Below are positions 43,181 to 48,953 of a stretch of DNA of 64,000 bases, piece by piece. Location: positions 1-64,000 of IMG/VR virus record IMGVR_UViG_3300030419_003648; one strand, given 5' to 3'. The notes beneath the pieces are model-generated. The model was given only the letters and a program-made list of their open reading frames with translations, was not told where the DNA came from and ran no database searches. Source of the DNA: a virus. A program made the position numbers and the translations under genes. Every line of letters begins with the position of its first letter. The first letter of the stretch is position 1.

Positions 43181-44174
43181 TCTTGGAACATTAGAGTTCT
43201 GTCAGCAAAAATACTTTTTGCAGTATAACCTTTCGTTCAAAGATAAGACCAATCCAAAAGCCTTAATGGGTACGATTACCCATAAGGTGATGCAGACTCT
43301 TGGAGACAAGAAAGTTGCAATGAACAAAGGTCTTGACATCGTAGAAGACGAAGAAACAGGAAGGAACCTAACGCTAGAAGAATGTGACGATCTTGAACTT
43401 CTCAACAACATAGCGTTTGACTATTACACTAACGCCTTTCCAGAAGTAAAGATTGGTGACAAAGAAAGAAGGCAATGTCTTCGCTGGGCTGAAAAAGCGA
43501 TAGCTTTTAAAGACGGAATGCTAGACCCTAGAAACCAAGATGTATTTGCTACTGAACTCTTTTTTGACATCGAGATAAAGAAGCCTTGGGCTAAATACAA
43601 ATATGAGTTTGAAGATCAAACAATCGAAGGCTATTTATCTATTAAGGGAACTGTTGACCTTATATTAGATCAGGGCAATGGCTTCTTTGAAATACTTGAT
43701 TATAAAACTGGAAGACGTTTGGATTGGGCTACCGGAGAAGAAAAGACTTACGAAAAGCTACAAAAAGATAAACAGCTTTTGCTTTATTATTACGCTCTGA
43801 AGAATATGTATCCTGACAAAGAATTTTCAGTAAGTATATATTATATCAACGACGGTGGATTATTTTCTATGGTCTTTGACGAAGAAGACTATGAGGATGC
43901 GGAAGAGATACTTCGTAAAAAATTTGAACAAATAAGAAGTATACAACAACCAAGACTACTATCAAATGAACATACTCACTGGAAGTGTCAAAAGCTATGC
44001 CTGTTTAGCAGTGAGTATGAGGATAGCGGAAAAAGTATATGTCAGCATATACGAGACGAAGTTAAAGAAAAGGGTGTAGTCAAAGTAGTTGAAGAATATG
44101 GCAAAATTGACAAGATCGCCACGTATGGAGATGGCGGCGGAAGATTGGCAGACGATAGCGATAGCAAAAAATGA
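43152..44174 (+). CDS. Cas4/AddB-like PD-(D/E)xK exonuclease with probable Fe-S cysteines
   Basis: C..KY, GTITH, GTVDL, ILDYKTG, QLLLY, C-terminal CQKLC..C. Confidence 0.82.
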   Translation: MIVCYHRSSSLGTLEFCQQKYFLQYNLSFKDKTNPKALMGTITHKVMQTLGDKKVAMNKGLDIVEDEETGRNLTLEECDDLELLNNIAFDYYTNAFPEVKIGDKERRQCLRWAEKAIAFKDGMLDPRNQDVFATELFFDIEIKKPWAKYKYEFEDQTIEGYLSIKGTVDLILDQGNGFFEILDYKTGRRLDWATGEEKTYEKLQKDKQLLLYYYALKNMYPDKEFSVSIYYINDGGLFSMVFDEEDYEDAEEILRKKFEQIRSIQQPRLLSNEHTHWKCQKLCLFSSEYEDSGKSICQHIRDEVKEKGVVKVVEEYGKIDKIATYGDGGGRLADDSDSKK

Positions 44175-46093
44175 ATTGGACACCTTTACACCTGCATAGC
44201 CATTACAGCCTCCTAGACGGCCTCTCAAAGCCTTCTCAGATAGCTTCTCGGTGTGCGAACCTTGGTTTTGAATCTTGCGCTCTAACGGATCACGGGACGA
44301 TCTCTGGCGCTGTCGCATTTTCTAAAGCAATGAGGCAAAAGAATATCAAGCCAATACTCGGTTGTGAGTTCTACCTAAGCCAGCAAGATTGCACGGTTAA
44401 GTCCGAAGAAAATAGAAAACTGAGTCATCTCTGTGTCATTGCAAAGAATAAGAAAGGTTGGGGTCAGCTTATACAGGCGACTTCAAGAAGTAACGATGAA
44501 GAAAATTTCTATTATAAGCCTCGTCTTGATCTTGATACTCTAGGTCAATACGCAGATGGAAACTTGATAGCTTTTAGCGGACATCTTGGAAGTGATTTAG
44601 CAAATGTGATTTTCACTGATATTAAATCTGGTTATCAGGCTACAACTTTAGATGAGTTCAAAAGGTATACTCATGCTGACTGGCCTGAGAGAGTTTCCAA
44701 GTTAGCTCATAGGTATCGAGATATATTTGGTAAAGATAATTTCTTCCTTGAAGTGCAATCAATAGACCAAGAGAATTCCATTGCAGCTAAGATGGTCGCT
44801 GAAGGAATGAGATATGTAGCGAATAAATACGACTTCAGAACTGTAGCTACAGCTGACTCTCACTACCCTGAACAAAAAGATGCAGGAGATCAACTTCTAC
44901 TTCTCTGCTCAGCGATGAGAACAACCCTTAGAGGTGTGAAAAAGAAAATCCAAGCCAATGAAGATGTGGCATTTTCTGGCTTTATGAAGTCAACAAATTT
45001 TCATATTCCAACATTAGAAGAAATACAATCAGTCAATTCGTCAAAAGAGATTGATACTTCTATGGAAATAGCGAGTATGTGCGAAGACTACGACATACTC
45101 GGCCAACCTATGCTCCCAGAATTTGAATGTCCTGAAAATAAATCAGAAGAAGCGCATCTAAGACAGTTGTGCCGTGATGGTTGGCGCGATAAGCTGTCTG
45201 GAATTTTGACAAAAGATCAAAAGAACGAATACACCGAAAGAATTAAAAAAGAACTTGATGTCATAAGCAGTGCTAAACTGTCTGGCTACTTCCTTATTGT
45301 CAGAGATATAGTTAACAGTGTCAGGTCTAGAAATCATATACCCGGTCCGGGAAGAGGTTCTGCTGCTGGATGCTTAGTTTCTTATCTGATTGGGATTACA
45401 CAATTAGACCCTATCAGATACGGTTTAATCTTTGAACGCTTTTATAACGCAGGAAGAAATACAGGTGGGCATGTATCGCTTCCAGATATTGATATTGACG
45501 TTCCAGCTACTAAACGAGACGAAACTATAGACTATATCAGAAGTAAATATGGTAATGATCGTGTTGGTCAAATGGTCACGTTTGGAAGGCTTCAAGGTAG
45601 AAGCGCGTTAAAAGAAGTTCTTAGAATGAATGACGCTTGTAGTTATGACGAAATGAACGCTATCACTAAAAGCCTTCCTCACGAACACGAAGTGTCTGAT
45701 CAATTAGCTGAAATGGACGAACCGTCTGTAATTCAATGGACGTTAATGAATCAGCCGGATTCACTGAAAGATTATTGCCGATTAAATGACGATGGTAATC
45801 TTGAAGGCGACTACGCCAAATTATTTGCGCAGGCCATGCGTATAGAAGGCACATTTAAATCACAAGGAAAACACGCCGCTGGAGTCGTGATCTCTTCCCA
45901 TAAACTAGATGAAGTTTGTCCAATGGTTAGAGATAAGAAAGGCGCTGAGAAGATAGCAGGGCTTGAAATGAACGACCTAGAAGCAATGGGACATGTAAAG
46001 TTTGACATTTTAGGAATTTCCCTAATGGACAAAATCATGGGGATCAGAGATAAATTGGAGGAGGACGATGACCAAGAAAACTTGGAAAGATAA
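44171..46093 (+). CDS. dnaE: DNA polymerase III alpha, N-terminal part (PHP + palm/thumb)
   Basis: HLHSHYSLLDG, LTDHG, GCEFY, DSHY, GPGRGSAAG, FERF, PDIDID, HAAGVV, KFDILG; ends there. Confidence 0.93.
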   Translation: MNWTPLHLHSHYSLLDGLSKPSQIASRCANLGFESCALTDHGTISGAVAFSKAMRQKNIKPILGCEFYLSQQDCTVKSEENRKLSHLCVIAKNKKGWGQLIQATSRSNDEENFYYKPRLDLDTLGQYADGNLIAFSGHLGSDLANVIFTDIKSGYQATTLDEFKRYTHADWPERVSKLAHRYRDIFGKDNFFLEVQSIDQENSIAAKMVAEGMRYVANKYDFRTVATADSHYPEQKDAGDQLLLLCSAMRTTLRGVKKKIQANEDVAFSGFMKSTNFHIPTLEEIQSVNSSKEIDTSMEIASMCEDYDILGQPMLPEFECPENKSEEAHLRQLCRDGWRDKLSGILTKDQKNEYTERIKKELDVISSAKLSGYFLIVRDIVNSVRSRNHIPGPGRGSAAGCLVSYLIGITQLDPIRYGLIFERFYNAGRNTGGHVSLPDIDIDVPATKRDETIDYIRSKYGNDRVGQMVTFGRLQGRSALKEVLRMNDACSYDEMNAITKSLPHEHEVSDQLAEMDEPSVIQWTLMNQPDSLKDYCRLNDDGNLEGDYAKLFAQAMRIEGTFKSQGKHAAGVVISSHKLDEVCPMVRDKKGAEKIAGLEMNDLEAMGHVKFDILGISLMDKIMGIRDKLEEDDDQENLER

Positions 46094-46286
46094 AATTCGG
46101 GACAAAATTCAAAACGGAAGATACGAAGAATACAAAGGTCTTTCCATTTGCAAAATAAACGATTTCTACCAACCAATGAACCGGAAGGTAAGATACCAAG
46201 TCCACTCGTATCGTTTCAGCGGACTTTTTGAAGATATTGAAGAAGCATTGGATAAATTTTTTGAGATTAAGAGGAAAATAAGATGA
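46068..46286 (+). CDS. small hypothetical protein between the dnaE fragments
   Basis: GGAGG RBS; 72 aa. Confidence 0.6.
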   Translation: MTKKTWKDKIRDKIQNGRYEEYKGLSICKINDFYQPMNRKVRYQVHSYRFSGLFEDIEEALDKFFEIKRKIR

Positions 46287-46963
46287 ATTACAAAGACATT
46301 ATTGTTTTTGACTTTGAAACAGGTTCTAGGAATCCGCACAAAACACAACCAGTCCAGATCGCAGCTGTAGCGATTCACGGAAGAAAGCTGACCATTCAGC
46401 CTGACGGAGAGTTTAACAGTCTTATCAGGCCAGTGCTGGACGATGAAGAGGCCATAAAGCTAGGATTAGACCCTATTGAAGACGAAGCCTTAGCTGTGAA
46501 TGGAAAGACCAGAGAAGAGCTTGCCAAAGCTCCTCAACCAAAAGTGGTTTGGGATAAGTTTGCAAATTTTGTAAACAGGTACAATTTCAAAAAAACACCT
46601 TATTATGCCCCAATCGCTGCTGGATACAACATAATCGGCTTCGATCTGCCGATAGTACAAAGGATGTGTGAAAAATATGGGCCAGTTGACAAGAAAACTG
46701 GTCAGCAAACACTCTTCAATAAAATTCACAAAGTTGATATGCTTGATATTGTCTGGATGTGGATGGAGAATAATGCCGATGTTAAATCTCTGAGCATGGA
46801 TTCAATGCGTGATTTACTAGGTATGTCTAAAGAAAATGCGCATGACGCTTTGCAGGACGTTAAGGATACAGCTTTGATGATGATATCCTTCATGAAATTC
46901 CACCGAAAAATTGCACCAAAAGTAAAATTTGAGAAAGCCTTTGCAGATGGCCGAGACTTTTAA
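46283..46963 (+). CDS. DEDDh 3'-5' exonuclease (DnaQ-like)
   Basis: FDFETG, YNIIGFD, HDALQDV. Confidence 0.9.
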   Translation: MNYKDIIVFDFETGSRNPHKTQPVQIAAVAIHGRKLTIQPDGEFNSLIRPVLDDEEAIKLGLDPIEDEALAVNGKTREELAKAPQPKVVWDKFANFVNRYNFKKTPYYAPIAAGYNIIGFDLPIVQRMCEKYGPVDKKTGQQTLFNKIHKVDMLDIVWMWMENNADVKSLSMDSMRDLLGMSKENAHDALQDVKDTALMMISFMKFHRKIAPKVKFEKAFADGRDF

Positions 46964-48539
46964 TTTAATTGAAGATGATAGCTTTGCCGACGAAGCTACT
47001 TGGGACTTAATATGCTCAGGAAAGACTAAAGGTGTTTTCCAACTAGAAAGCAACTTGGGTAAGTCTTGGGCAAAAAGAGTCAAACCAAGAAACATTGAAG
47101 AACTAGCAGCCCTGCTGTCAATAATAAGACCCGGAACATTGAAGGCTATACAAGATGGCAAATCAATGACCCAAAGGTTTGTTGATAGGAAAAATGGGTC
47201 TGAAAAGATTACTTACCCACACCCATCTTTAGAGCCTATACTCAAAACAACCCAAGGGGTTCTTGTGTATCAAGAGCAGTCTATGCAGATTGCTCAAATG
47301 CTTGCTGGTTTTGATCTTCAAGAGGCAGATAACCTTCGTAAAGCAATCGGTAAGAAAAAAGCCGATCTAATGGCGAAAGTCAAAAAGGCATTTCTAGCTG
47401 GAGCTATTAAAGAGGGGATTGTTGATAAGGACACCGCTGAGGAAATCTTCAGTTGGATTGAGAAGTCCAGTCGTTACGCATTTAATAAGTCTCATGCGGT
47501 TTCGTATGCAGTATGTGCTTATTGGAGCGCTTTTTGTAAAGCTCATCACCAACTAGAATTTTACTGCAATTATTTGATCTACTCTTCAGGCAAGCCAGAC
47601 CCTCATCAAGAAGTCAGAGAGCTTGTCAACGATGCAAAGAATAATGAAATCTATATCAGCCCTCCATCAATAAAGAGCTTAAATGTTCAGACTGACATAA
47701 TTGATGGCCGTATACATTTCGGCATGTCTAATGTTAAGTCTATTGGCGTAAAGCATATAGAAAAATTCAAATCAATAATTAAAGAAGTAGAAGAGCAGAT
47801 AAACAAACCATTCATTGAATGGTCTTGGTATGATTTTTTGGTCTTGGCTTCGCAAAAGGTCAATAGGCCGGTGGTGATCGCTTTATGTTCGATTGGATTC
47901 TTTTCGCATTTGCCAGAGACCAGAACGGAAATGTTAGATAGGTTCCACACTTGGGGTCAACTTACTAAAAAGGAACAAGAGTGGGCGGTCGAAAACCATT
48001 CCAAATTTACCTGCATTGAAAAGATATTGAGCAAAATGGTTCCTGTCAAGAAAGAGGGCGGAGCTACATTCAATAAAAAGCGCTCTGACATGCTGCGCGA
48101 CCTTTTGAACGAAATGCAGAATCCATCAAGTCCAATGTCTGACTCTAGACGGTGGGTTATACAAGAAGAAGAAAGGTACTTAGGGGTAGCTTTAACATAC
48201 TCTAGAATTGAAGCCTGCAACACGAACCTAGCAAATACCACGATCAAAGAGTTTTTAGATGGTAAGCGAGGCGACATTAAAATGGCTGTTACCATTTCCG
48301 ATGTCAAAAAATGGGTAACTAAAAACGGTAAGATGAAAGGTTCTGAAATGGCATTTCTTTGTGTAGAAGATACCACTGGAACTTTAGACACGGTAACAGT
48401 GTTTTCTGACCAGTGGCAAGAGAACAAAGGTATACTGTATACTGGTAACAATGTTATAATTTCTGGCACATCATCGAAAGACAAAAGACGACAAATTGAC
48501 GATGGTTTCATTGTCAACAGCGTTATAGAATTAAGTTGA
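46947..48539 (+). CDS. dnaE: DNA polymerase III alpha, C-terminal part (fingers, HhH, OB)
   Basis: GVFQLES, IRPG, GVLVYQEQ, ADNLRKAIGKK, YAFNKSHAVSY, MAFLCVEDTTG; start uncertain. Confidence 0.92.
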   Translation: MAETFNLIEDDSFADEATWDLICSGKTKGVFQLESNLGKSWAKRVKPRNIEELAALLSIIRPGTLKAIQDGKSMTQRFVDRKNGSEKITYPHPSLEPILKTTQGVLVYQEQSMQIAQMLAGFDLQEADNLRKAIGKKKADLMAKVKKAFLAGAIKEGIVDKDTAEEIFSWIEKSSRYAFNKSHAVSYAVCAYWSAFCKAHHQLEFYCNYLIYSSGKPDPHQEVRELVNDAKNNEIYISPPSIKSLNVQTDIIDGRIHFGMSNVKSIGVKHIEKFKSIIKEVEEQINKPFIEWSWYDFLVLASQKVNRPVVIALCSIGFFSHLPETRTEMLDRFHTWGQLTKKEQEWAVENHSKFTCIEKILSKMVPVKKEGGATFNKKRSDMLRDLLNEMQNPSSPMSDSRRWVIQEEERYLGVALTYSRIEACNTNLANTTIKEFLDGKRGDIKMAVTISDVKKWVTKNGKMKGSEMAFLCVEDTTGTLDTVTVFSDQWQENKGILYTGNNVIISGTSSKDKRRQIDDGFIVNSVIELS

Positions 48540-48564
48540 CGAAAATCAAAAAGAACAGTATGAT
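48536..48564 (+). promoter_or_regulatory. sigma70-type promoter
   Basis: TTGACG-17 bp-TATGAT upstream of second ssb. Confidence 0.7.
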
Positions 48565-48596
48565 ATTTGTATCGTATTGCAATTTAGAGGGAAAGT

Positions 48597-48953
48597 ATGA
48601 ATACAATTTCTAATTATTGCCGCTTTATAGGACGGTTAGTTCAAGATCCAAAGACTGTAAAATTTGAAAATACGGAGCTTTGCACTTTTACGCTAGCTGT
48701 CACTGAGTACAGAAGAGAAAAAGATGGCAACAAAAAAAAGAATGTCAATTTTTTTGACTTTGAAGCATGGGACTCTGGCGGTTCAACTATTCAAAAACAC
48801 TGTAGTAAAGGCGACATAATTGATTTGGTGGCATCTGCCAGAAACAATTCTTGGACAGATAAGGATGGTAAGAAAAGATTCTCAACAAAGTTCAGAGTCA
48901 AAGAATTCAAACTCTTTGGAAATCAGCAAAAGCAAAAAACTGAAAAAAGCTGA
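48597..48953 (+). CDS. ssb: second SSB (OB fold) without acidic tail
   Basis: GRLVQDP, FTLAV, FFDFEAW, KGD, WTDKDG; ends QKQKTEKS. Confidence 0.85.
   Translation: MNTISNYCRFIGRLVQDPKTVKFENTELCTFTLAVTEYRREKDGNKKKNVNFFDFEAWDSGGSTIQKHCSKGDIIDLVASARNNSWTDKDGKKRFSTKFRVKEFKLFGNQQKQKTEKS

Follow-up and report, generated by a model that had tools for sequence, protein, structure and literature searches.

Family-C DNA polymerases are the replicases of all bacteria. To our knowledge, they have been described until now only as single chains or as halves ligated by inteins, the latter in cyanobacteria and at a few metagenomic loci. The dnaE locus analysed here fits neither description. It lies in a viral DNA of 64,000 nucleotides (nt) (the window: positions 1 to 64,000 of the IMG/VR record IMGVR_UViG_3300030419_003648), which is part of a 99,882-nt virus record with an estimated completeness of 66% (CheckV). 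Here the α subunit of DNA polymerase III (Pol III) is encoded by two genes, dnaE-N and dnaE-C, and the gap between them holds two other genes, one of which specifies a proofreading-type exonuclease. It is quite probable that this is a two-gene replicative C-family polymerase, working as a noncovalent complex of DnaE-N and DnaE-C.

Intein-free splitting is known from another polymerase family: gp43A and gp43B of the T4-related phages 25, 44RR, 31, 65 and 133, the PolB of Methanothermobacter thermautotrophicus, and an engineered split Pfu polymerase (PMC2988022, PMC3061061). The 43A and 43B proteins of phage 25 purify together in active form, split Pfu has full activity, and both the M. thermautotrophicus enzyme and the engineered Pfu are functional when made by coupled translation (PMC2988022, PMC3061061). 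The metagenomic "fractured" dnaE genes, on the other hand, combine a split intein with a free-standing homing endonuclease (Dassa et al. 2009, PMC2677866). Full-text searches of the literature, including PMC12926913, PMC3919608, PMC4889955, PMC11348598, PMC2147016 and PMC2677866, found no description of an intein-free split family-C polymerase.

The two halves and the break between them

Four open reading frames (ORFs) make up the locus:

dnaE-N, 44171..46093, + strand: 640 amino acids (aa); PHP, palm and thumb of Pol III α; stop TAA at 46091-46093
ORF72, 46068..46286, + strand: 72 aa; small conserved protein, no family assigned
DEDDh 3'-5' exonuclease gene, 46283..46963, + strand: 226 aa; start ATG at 46283, stop TAA at 46961-46963
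dnaE-C, 46947..48539, + strand: 530 aa from ATG 46947; fingers, (HhH)2 and OB-like C-terminal part

All four are intact and tightly packed, with successive overlaps of 26, 4 and 17 nt. The original prediction, made from the sequence without database searches, had placed them in just this way, with the exonuclease and the 72-aa ORF between the polymerase halves, and the ORF list and Pfam agree with it.

What does each half contribute? DnaE-N carries a PHP domain (PF02811, residues 6-197, E 1.2e-39 in Pfam) and a complete DNA_pol3_alpha domain (PF07733, model positions 2-260 of 260 at residues 329-615, E 1.7e-70), and can be aligned with the T. aquaticus (Taq), E. coli and M. tuberculosis (Mtb) α subunits as far as E. 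coli residue 562. All three catalytic Asp residues are on this chain, as foreseen: D441, D443 and D612 (E. coli D401, D403 and D555) are invariant in 42 of 42 diverse DnaE-N relatives. The motifs by which the halves had been recognized, PDIDID, KFDILG and TWDLI..GVFQLES, are likewise present. The PHP metal ligands, only "most" of which had been credited to the protein, are there in full, all nine of them (H7, H9, D16, H41, E66, H86, H138, D229 and H231); the complete set is kept in 117 of 131 loci, this phage included, and is lost in some clades. DnaE-N was also said to stop right after KFDILG. It does end near that motif, but not right after it: 28 residues lie downstream of Asp612. In an AlphaFold2 model built with the 42 relatives (predicted local distance difference test, pLDDT, 93.3; predicted template modelling score, pTM, 0.91; only the last 10 residues low-confidence), the strand bearing Asp612 is followed by one long helix, 617-639. 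By Pfam borders the fingers domain begins with this helix, which is retained on DnaE-N.

The remainder of the fingers is on DnaE-C, which matches DNA_pol3_finger (PF17657, profile positions 27-166 of 166, E 1.8e-48 in Pfam) and HHH_6 (PF14579, E 8.6e-07) and aligns to E. coli α 592-899. Its OB fold amounts only to a weak stretch of similarity to E. coli 978-1057, PF01336 being seen in relatives, and no τ-binding C-terminal domain is evident in DnaE-C. The mechanically called ORF begins at TTG 46929; the start is most probably ATG 46947 instead, because this Met is conserved in relatives, which are called at 528-531 aa. (The in-frame residues upstream of the ATG, LKRLLQM in relatives, are also conserved, but probably merely because they overlap the C-terminus of the exonuclease in another frame.)

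Aligning the halves with E. coli α places the break. The last aligned residue of DnaE-N, 619, corresponds to E. coli 562 (Taq 625), and the first aligned residue of DnaE-C, 20, to E. coli 592 (Taq 651). The DnaE-N tail (GISLMDKIMGIRDKL..) and the DnaE-C head (FNLIEDDSFADEATWDLI) match the E. coli segments that flank a variable loop; by this alignment, the break is in that loop, at the palm/fingers border and just after the first fingers helix (E. coli α about 563-591), which is the junction that had been proposed. The unaligned junction comprises 21 residues on DnaE-N and 19 on DnaE-C, 40 in all, compared with 29 in E. coli α; thus nothing is missing, and there is no room for an intein. Pfam finds no Hint/intein domain in either half, no Cys, Ser or Thr is conserved at the C-half junction in this phage's clade, and FNKSH, before which the cyanobacterial split site lies, runs uninterrupted within DnaE-C, all of which sustains the original prediction on this point.

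The locus can thus be set against three types of polymerase gene: 1) The continuous polypeptide of a DnaE-type α is not there; a stop codon (46091-46093) and a new start (46947) separate two genes. 2) A DnaE split by an intein would have intein halves, a break at the cyanobacterial site or a homing endonuclease between its halves; there are no intein halves, that site is intact, and no homing endonuclease lies between. 3) What is found, namely adjacent cistrons, intact ORFs under selection, and no splicing element, is what characterizes an intein-free split-polymerase gene.

Conservation of the split and its evolution

Scanning IMG/VR with DnaE-N, with DnaE-C and with an unsplit relative yielded more than 200 loci, of which the 140 distinct loci that hold both the N end and the C start were counted. 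The dnaE gene is split in 139 of these 140; the exonuclease gene lies between the halves in all 139, and directly upstream of dnaE-C in 126 of them. The single contiguous locus, L123, is a distant outgroup. Sharing of the split layout to this extent is far beyond chance. At every one of 64 distinct split junctions the tail helix is followed by a stop, and a new Met precedes F(D/N)xxx..TWDLI. The conservation of breakpoint and gene order that the original prediction had offered as its check is therefore borne out by these relatives.

Protein searches extend the picture. DnaE-N was compared with 1.84 billion representative proteins (50%-identity clusters), and 142 of the best 150 representative clusters (36-56% identity) terminate 15-40 residues past KFDxLG. 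At E <= 1e-20, DnaE-C has 3642 relatives. Among the best 120, whose sources are Tara, ENA, JGI and NCBI, every protein stands alone, with a length of 333-561 aa (500-561 in most), and none is fused to an exonuclease. The phages that retain the layout form a very large family, uncultured and mostly marine.

Could the break be an artefact of assembly, or the locus a decaying pseudogene? Either is scarcely credible. The source is, to be sure, an incomplete metagenome-assembled virus record, but the same break is present in 139 distinct contigs from many samples as well as in the 142 representative clusters. Pairwise ratios of nonsynonymous to synonymous substitution (dN/dS) are 0.005-0.17 for all four genes, denoting strong purifying selection (against L001, a related locus, 0.04 for DnaE-N and 0.02 for DnaE-C), and the catalytic residues are invariant. 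Mis-assembly and inactive, decaying fragments had been named beforehand as findings that could overturn the prediction; the independent contigs exclude the former, and selection and catalytic residues exclude the latter as decay.

Inteins do occur in these relatives, at other places. Many DnaE-N relatives (P0007, P0011, P0015, P0023, P0024, P0034, P0036 and others) are about 1000-1400 aa long, with one or two full inteins (LAGLIDADG) in the PHP/palm region. P0091 has a circularly permuted YpsA (SLOG) domain fused to it downstream of the break point.

The gap between the halves measures 750-6997 nt across the split loci and, in relatives, accommodates unrelated cargo of up to about 6 kb: TylF- and FkbM-type methyltransferases, a uracil-DNA glycosylase, an RCC1-repeat protein, helix-turn-helix proteins and a metabolic cassette. 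The 6-kb cassette (L083:1302-7227; also L084, L085, L088 and L090) lies between dnaE-N/ORF72 and the exonuclease gene and encodes glyoxalase-like, aldehyde dehydrogenase, DDAH/amidinotransferase-like, class-III aminotransferase, UDP-glucose dehydrogenase-like and saccharopine-dehydrogenase-like proteins; it resembles an auxiliary metabolic module, perhaps one for amine/polyamine metabolism. At L112:4748-7210, and also in L114, L116 and L117, the small ORF and the exonuclease gene flank a gene for a protein of 816-820 aa that has RCC1 repeats at its N-terminus. In several sublineages, S-adenosylmethionine-dependent methyltransferases (TylF/Methyltransf_24 or FkbM) are found farther downstream:

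Methyltransferase insertions, between the exonuclease gene and dnaE-C: L002:10780-11550; L052:10468-11103; L102:7348-8001; also L009, L011, L024, L035, L039 and L062

Neither an intron nor a recoding device is compatible with such a gap, made up of conserved genes and variable cargo. This bears on two ways in which the separate genes might nevertheless yield a joined product. The first is covalent rejoining of the halves, whether at the protein level, by trans-splicing through a mini-intein that went unrecognised, or at the RNA level, by splicing out a large intron that contains ORFs. Inteins abound in this lineage: relatives have them in DnaE-N and in the fingers, and a split intein with a Vsr-like endonuclease is present within DnaE-C of L052; moreover, cyanobacterial DnaE and the products of the metagenomic "fractured genes" are rejoined in just this way (PMC2677866). 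We nonetheless regard rejoining as highly improbable at the present break: neither half has a Hint/intein domain, both ends align to α with their 40 rather than 29 junction residues, the clade has no conserved Cys/Ser/Thr at the C-half junction, and the interval 43800-48800 has no Rfam match at E <= 1, and hence no Rfam intron. What lies between the halves is a set of conserved genes under purifying selection, which have ribosome-binding sites (RBSs) of their own, plus variable cargo in a gap of up to 7 kb. RNA splicing, the third finding that could have told against the original prediction, is very unlikely on these grounds.

The second is a +1 ribosomal frameshift at TTT-TAA (46958-46963), making exonuclease and DnaE-C a single fusion protein. 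The proposal can draw on a weak RBS ahead of ATG 46947 and on the DnaE-C frame (+1), which in this phage is open across the exonuclease stop; the C frame is open there in 109 of 131 loci. Looking across the relatives makes this proposal distinctly unlikely: 67 loci have DnaE-C in the +1 frame relative to the exonuclease, 56 have it in the -1 frame and 8 in an identical frame; no conservation is seen in the codons that precede the stop; in 29 loci, exonuclease and DnaE-C genes are separated by 20 to more than 200 nt, in some cases holding whole genes; and the absence of exonuclease fusions among the best 120 DnaE-C relatives, the conserved start Met, and short overlaps typical of translational coupling all speak for a separate DnaE-C. 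As a conserved feature of the family, a +1 frameshift was rejected outright, because of the mixed frames, the unconserved codons, and the spacers or whole genes in between.

How old is the split? Six of the 150 DnaE-N representatives continue past the break. Three of them, P0012, P0044 and P0051 (1102-1151 aa), are simply unsplit; the other three, P0004, P0080 and P0038, have inteins or split inteins at other positions. Trees of the N region built with FastTree and IQ-TREE group the six into two clades (P0012/P0051/P0004 and P0044/P0038/P0080), each nested in well-supported split clades, and the starred branches require at least four changes of split/unsplit state. The simplest reading that the trees suggest is one old split followed by two re-fusions; repeated splitting is the alternative. 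(Scanning IMG/VR and metagenomes for the loci of the unsplit relatives returned only split relatives or a 31% match.)

A cultured phage whose known host is Rossellomorea aquimaris, Rossellomorea phage phiT1 (PV767480), has an intein-free break in the same loop. Its gene order is gp20, a 49-aa gp19, and gp18, and no exonuclease gene lies in the gap; gp20 ends in ..KFDLLGLKTLKVIQNSVDQINQGVAV* and gp18 starts with MFDILDIPLDDAKTYKLL..GVFQLES. In GenBank these are merely two "DNA polymerase III subunit alpha" coding sequences. The phiT1 protein is only about 32% identical to DnaE-N of the phage studied here. Since its nearest relatives are unsplit, and since it branches outside the marine clade, the phiT1 break apparently, and probably, arose independently; an independent break would mark the loop as a permissive site. 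A further divided dnaE, that of Bacillus phage vB_BceM_WH1 (L126; LC597490: 194353-198551), is annotated as three coding sequences, gp235, gp236 and gp237, with spacers of about 700 nt and about 400 nt, and is broken at other positions.

The genes in the gap and the proposed assembly of a replicase

The 226-aa protein is an RNase_T/DEDDh exonuclease (PF00929, E 1.9e-14) with the motifs DFET, GFD and H-x4-D, and matches PHROG 192, "DNA polymerase exonuclease subunit". Its catalytic residues, D10, E12, D121, H187 and D192, do not vary in any of 131 loci, and its dN/dS is 0-0.07. The NCBIfam ε models score it at 17-23 bits at best, below every cut-off (196-245).

ORF72 has 51 further distinct homologues in the same slot and a dN/dS of 0-0.17. 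An AlphaFold2 model (pLDDT 89.4) gives it the fold helix, four strands, helix. Pfam, PHROGs, NCBIfam, the protein atlas and VIA-align wide hold no match to it, and comparison with PDB folds (including Foldseek-PDB) gives nothing significant, the best being YkuJ with a Z of 5.8, below noise level. In L104-L207, a different conserved protein of about 60 aa, with the motif G.EY.K....R(I/V)SCC(K/R).(L/V)NA, occupies the slot after dnaE-N (e.g., L112:4539-4721); jackhmmer does not connect the two, and the idea that they form one family was rejected. L109, L110 and L115 have an acidic ORF of 92-97 aa in the small-gene slot.

The junction itself also varies among clades. Distant split clades (L083-L090, L095-L099, L104-L117, L036 and L040; e.g., L083:7839-8000) have a Cys motif inserted at the DnaE-C head, F(D/S/N)CGCxF ...20-35 aa... 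(D/L)Cxx(T/A)WxLI, and Cys also occurs in some DnaE-N tails (e.g., IMCIQ..NNIC*); this phage's clade has an acidic tail and lacks the Cys motif. The motif may form a knuckle that binds metal where the subunits meet. A strict pairing of the Cys-rich head with the SCC type of small ORF was considered and rejected: L083-L090 have the Cys head together with ORF72-type proteins. In L052 (11130-13962), DnaE-C is broken again, into a fingers fragment with an N-intein (Hint), a DUF559/Vsr-like endonuclease gene, and a remainder bearing the HhH; by this "fractured gene" order, the polymerase of L052 is in three pieces, with one break that lacks an intein and one that has it.

The surroundings are those of a replication module, with all genes on the + strand: a DnaB-like helicase, a primase, a dNMP kinase, two nucleases, the four-gene dnaE locus, SSB and a sigma factor. 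ORF72 starts (ATG 46068) within dnaE-N, 26 nt before its end, with GGAGGAGGA upstream at 46057-46065; the exonuclease gene starts in a 4-nt ATGA overlap with ORF72, with AGAGGA upstream at 46270-46275; dnaE-C, read from ATG 46947, overlaps the end of the exonuclease gene by 17 nt. No + strand terminator is found between the dnaE halves, the promoter and terminator scans being at the level of shuffled sequence. A nucleotide search with the 4.4-kb region found no match in 50,697 phage records; protein searches reach 34% identity at most. Nor was there any prophage or host hint: scanning genome contigs with a single protein returned one 35% match, on a 2.4-kb contig of a metagenome-assembled genome.

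The following scheme would accommodate these features. The four cistrons would be translated from one mRNA with translational coupling. DnaE-N, with its three catalytic Asp residues and an apparently active PHP site, would fold alone; its C-terminal helix would then dock into the fingers module of DnaE-C to form a composite active site, with the palm on one chain and the fingers, the DNA-binding HhH and the OB part on the other. The DEDDh exonuclease would join as an ε-like proofreading subunit, and ORF72 possibly as a small accessory subunit. The replicase would thus be a noncovalent hetero-oligomer with two potential proofreading sites; up to two such sites are plausible, judging from the intact nine-ligand PHP and the intact DEDDh residues.

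Several points weigh against this scheme. The noncovalent assembly and the activity of the halves are inferred. The exonuclease is only a distant relative of ε, and the RBS ahead of ATG 46947 is weak (GAGAAAG, 9 nt upstream). Searches of the available part of the 66%-complete genome found no PolA, PolB, second DnaE, β clamp or clamp loader; a further polymerase or clamp could be encoded in the missing third of the record.

If the halves are real, must they be halves of one enzyme? They could instead have been sub-functionalised, DnaE-N serving as a PHP nuclease or in gap filling and DnaE-C as a factor that binds DNA or a clamp, with the host replicase or an unseen phage polymerase copying the genome. 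The incompleteness of the record and the indirect case for assembly leave some place for this proposal, as does the lack of a clamp and clamp loader in the available genome part; the loss of PHP ligands in some clades implies that constraints differ between parts of the protein. We consider it unlikely all the same. The Asp triad is intact in 42 of 42 relatives, the two halves co-occur in fixed order at 139 of 139 loci and are under equally strong purifying selection, and no other polymerase was found; the two nested unsplit clades, moreover, imply that the halves have stayed mutually compatible.

One can also think of the arrangement as adaptive. The palm/fingers seam would then be a subunit interface that incorporates the exonuclease and a clade-specific small protein (ORF72 or the 60-aa "SCC" type), held together in some clades by a metal site rich in Cys (CxC...C) at the DnaE-C head; the result would be a core of four chains that has two sites for proofreading and in which the fingers and clamp-binding modules can be exchanged. 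We view so elaborate an architecture as possible but rather doubtful. If it is true, the position of the exonuclease gene at all 139 loci, the recurrence of the break in phiT1, and the apparent re-fusions reflect selection on the interface.

A two-gene polymerase working as a noncovalent complex, the reading that we prefer, would mean that a very large group of marine/aquatic phages normally has its catalytic core permanently shared by two proteins, one with the palm and one with the fingers and the DNA-binding parts. The break loop would be a site at which Pol III α tolerates interruption, useful for engineering and for studies of domain motion, and the split raises the question of how the proofreading exonuclease is integrated. 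There is a consequence for annotation as well: thousands of "truncated DnaE" calls in viromes are not fragments. Because a cultured phage with the same break (phiT1) is available and the operon can be co-expressed, these proposals are directly testable.

Comparison with known polymerases

The single-chain DnaE α subunits (E. coli, 2HNH and 5FKU; T. aquaticus, 2HPI and 3E0D; M. tuberculosis, 5LEW; also the unsplit phage DnaE of the gut-phage record MT836213 and that of Bacillus phage 276BB001) have the same order of domains, PHP, palm/thumb, fingers, HhH and OB-like tail, and share the Asp triad, GSAAGS and FNKSH; the nine-ligand PHP is that of the Taq and Mtb DnaE1 enzymes. Unlike them, the polymerase described here is made as two polypeptides, with two other genes in the gap.

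The locus also resembles the E. coli Pol III core (α-ε-θ) and PolC (in which a DEDDh domain is inserted in the PHP domain) in that a C-family polymerase, a DEDDh proofreader and a small third protein are encoded together. Its exonuclease, however, is only distantly related to ε, and ORF72 has no similarity to θ.

With the cyanobacterial and fractured dnaE genes it shares the two-piece layout, and the fractured type occurs in the same phage lineage (L052). It differs in having no intein halves, in the site of the break, in a product that cannot be ligated, and in the presence of a DEDDh exonuclease in place of a homing endonuclease. The polymerase of phiT1 is broken in the same loop without an intein and has a small ORF in the gap, but no exonuclease gene there.

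By analogy, the closest functional counterparts of the split DnaE are the intein-free split PolB enzymes. In both, a replicative polymerase is encoded by two neighbouring cistrons, the break is in or next to the fingers, and the intervening DNA is variable (2 bp to 3 kb in PolB). The PolB fold is, however, unrelated to the Pol-β-like palm of family C, and the PolB inserts are untranslated spacers or homing endonucleases, whereas the split DnaE has a universally conserved gene for a proofreading-type exonuclease. Split PolB is found in a few phages; split DnaE dominates a very large lineage.

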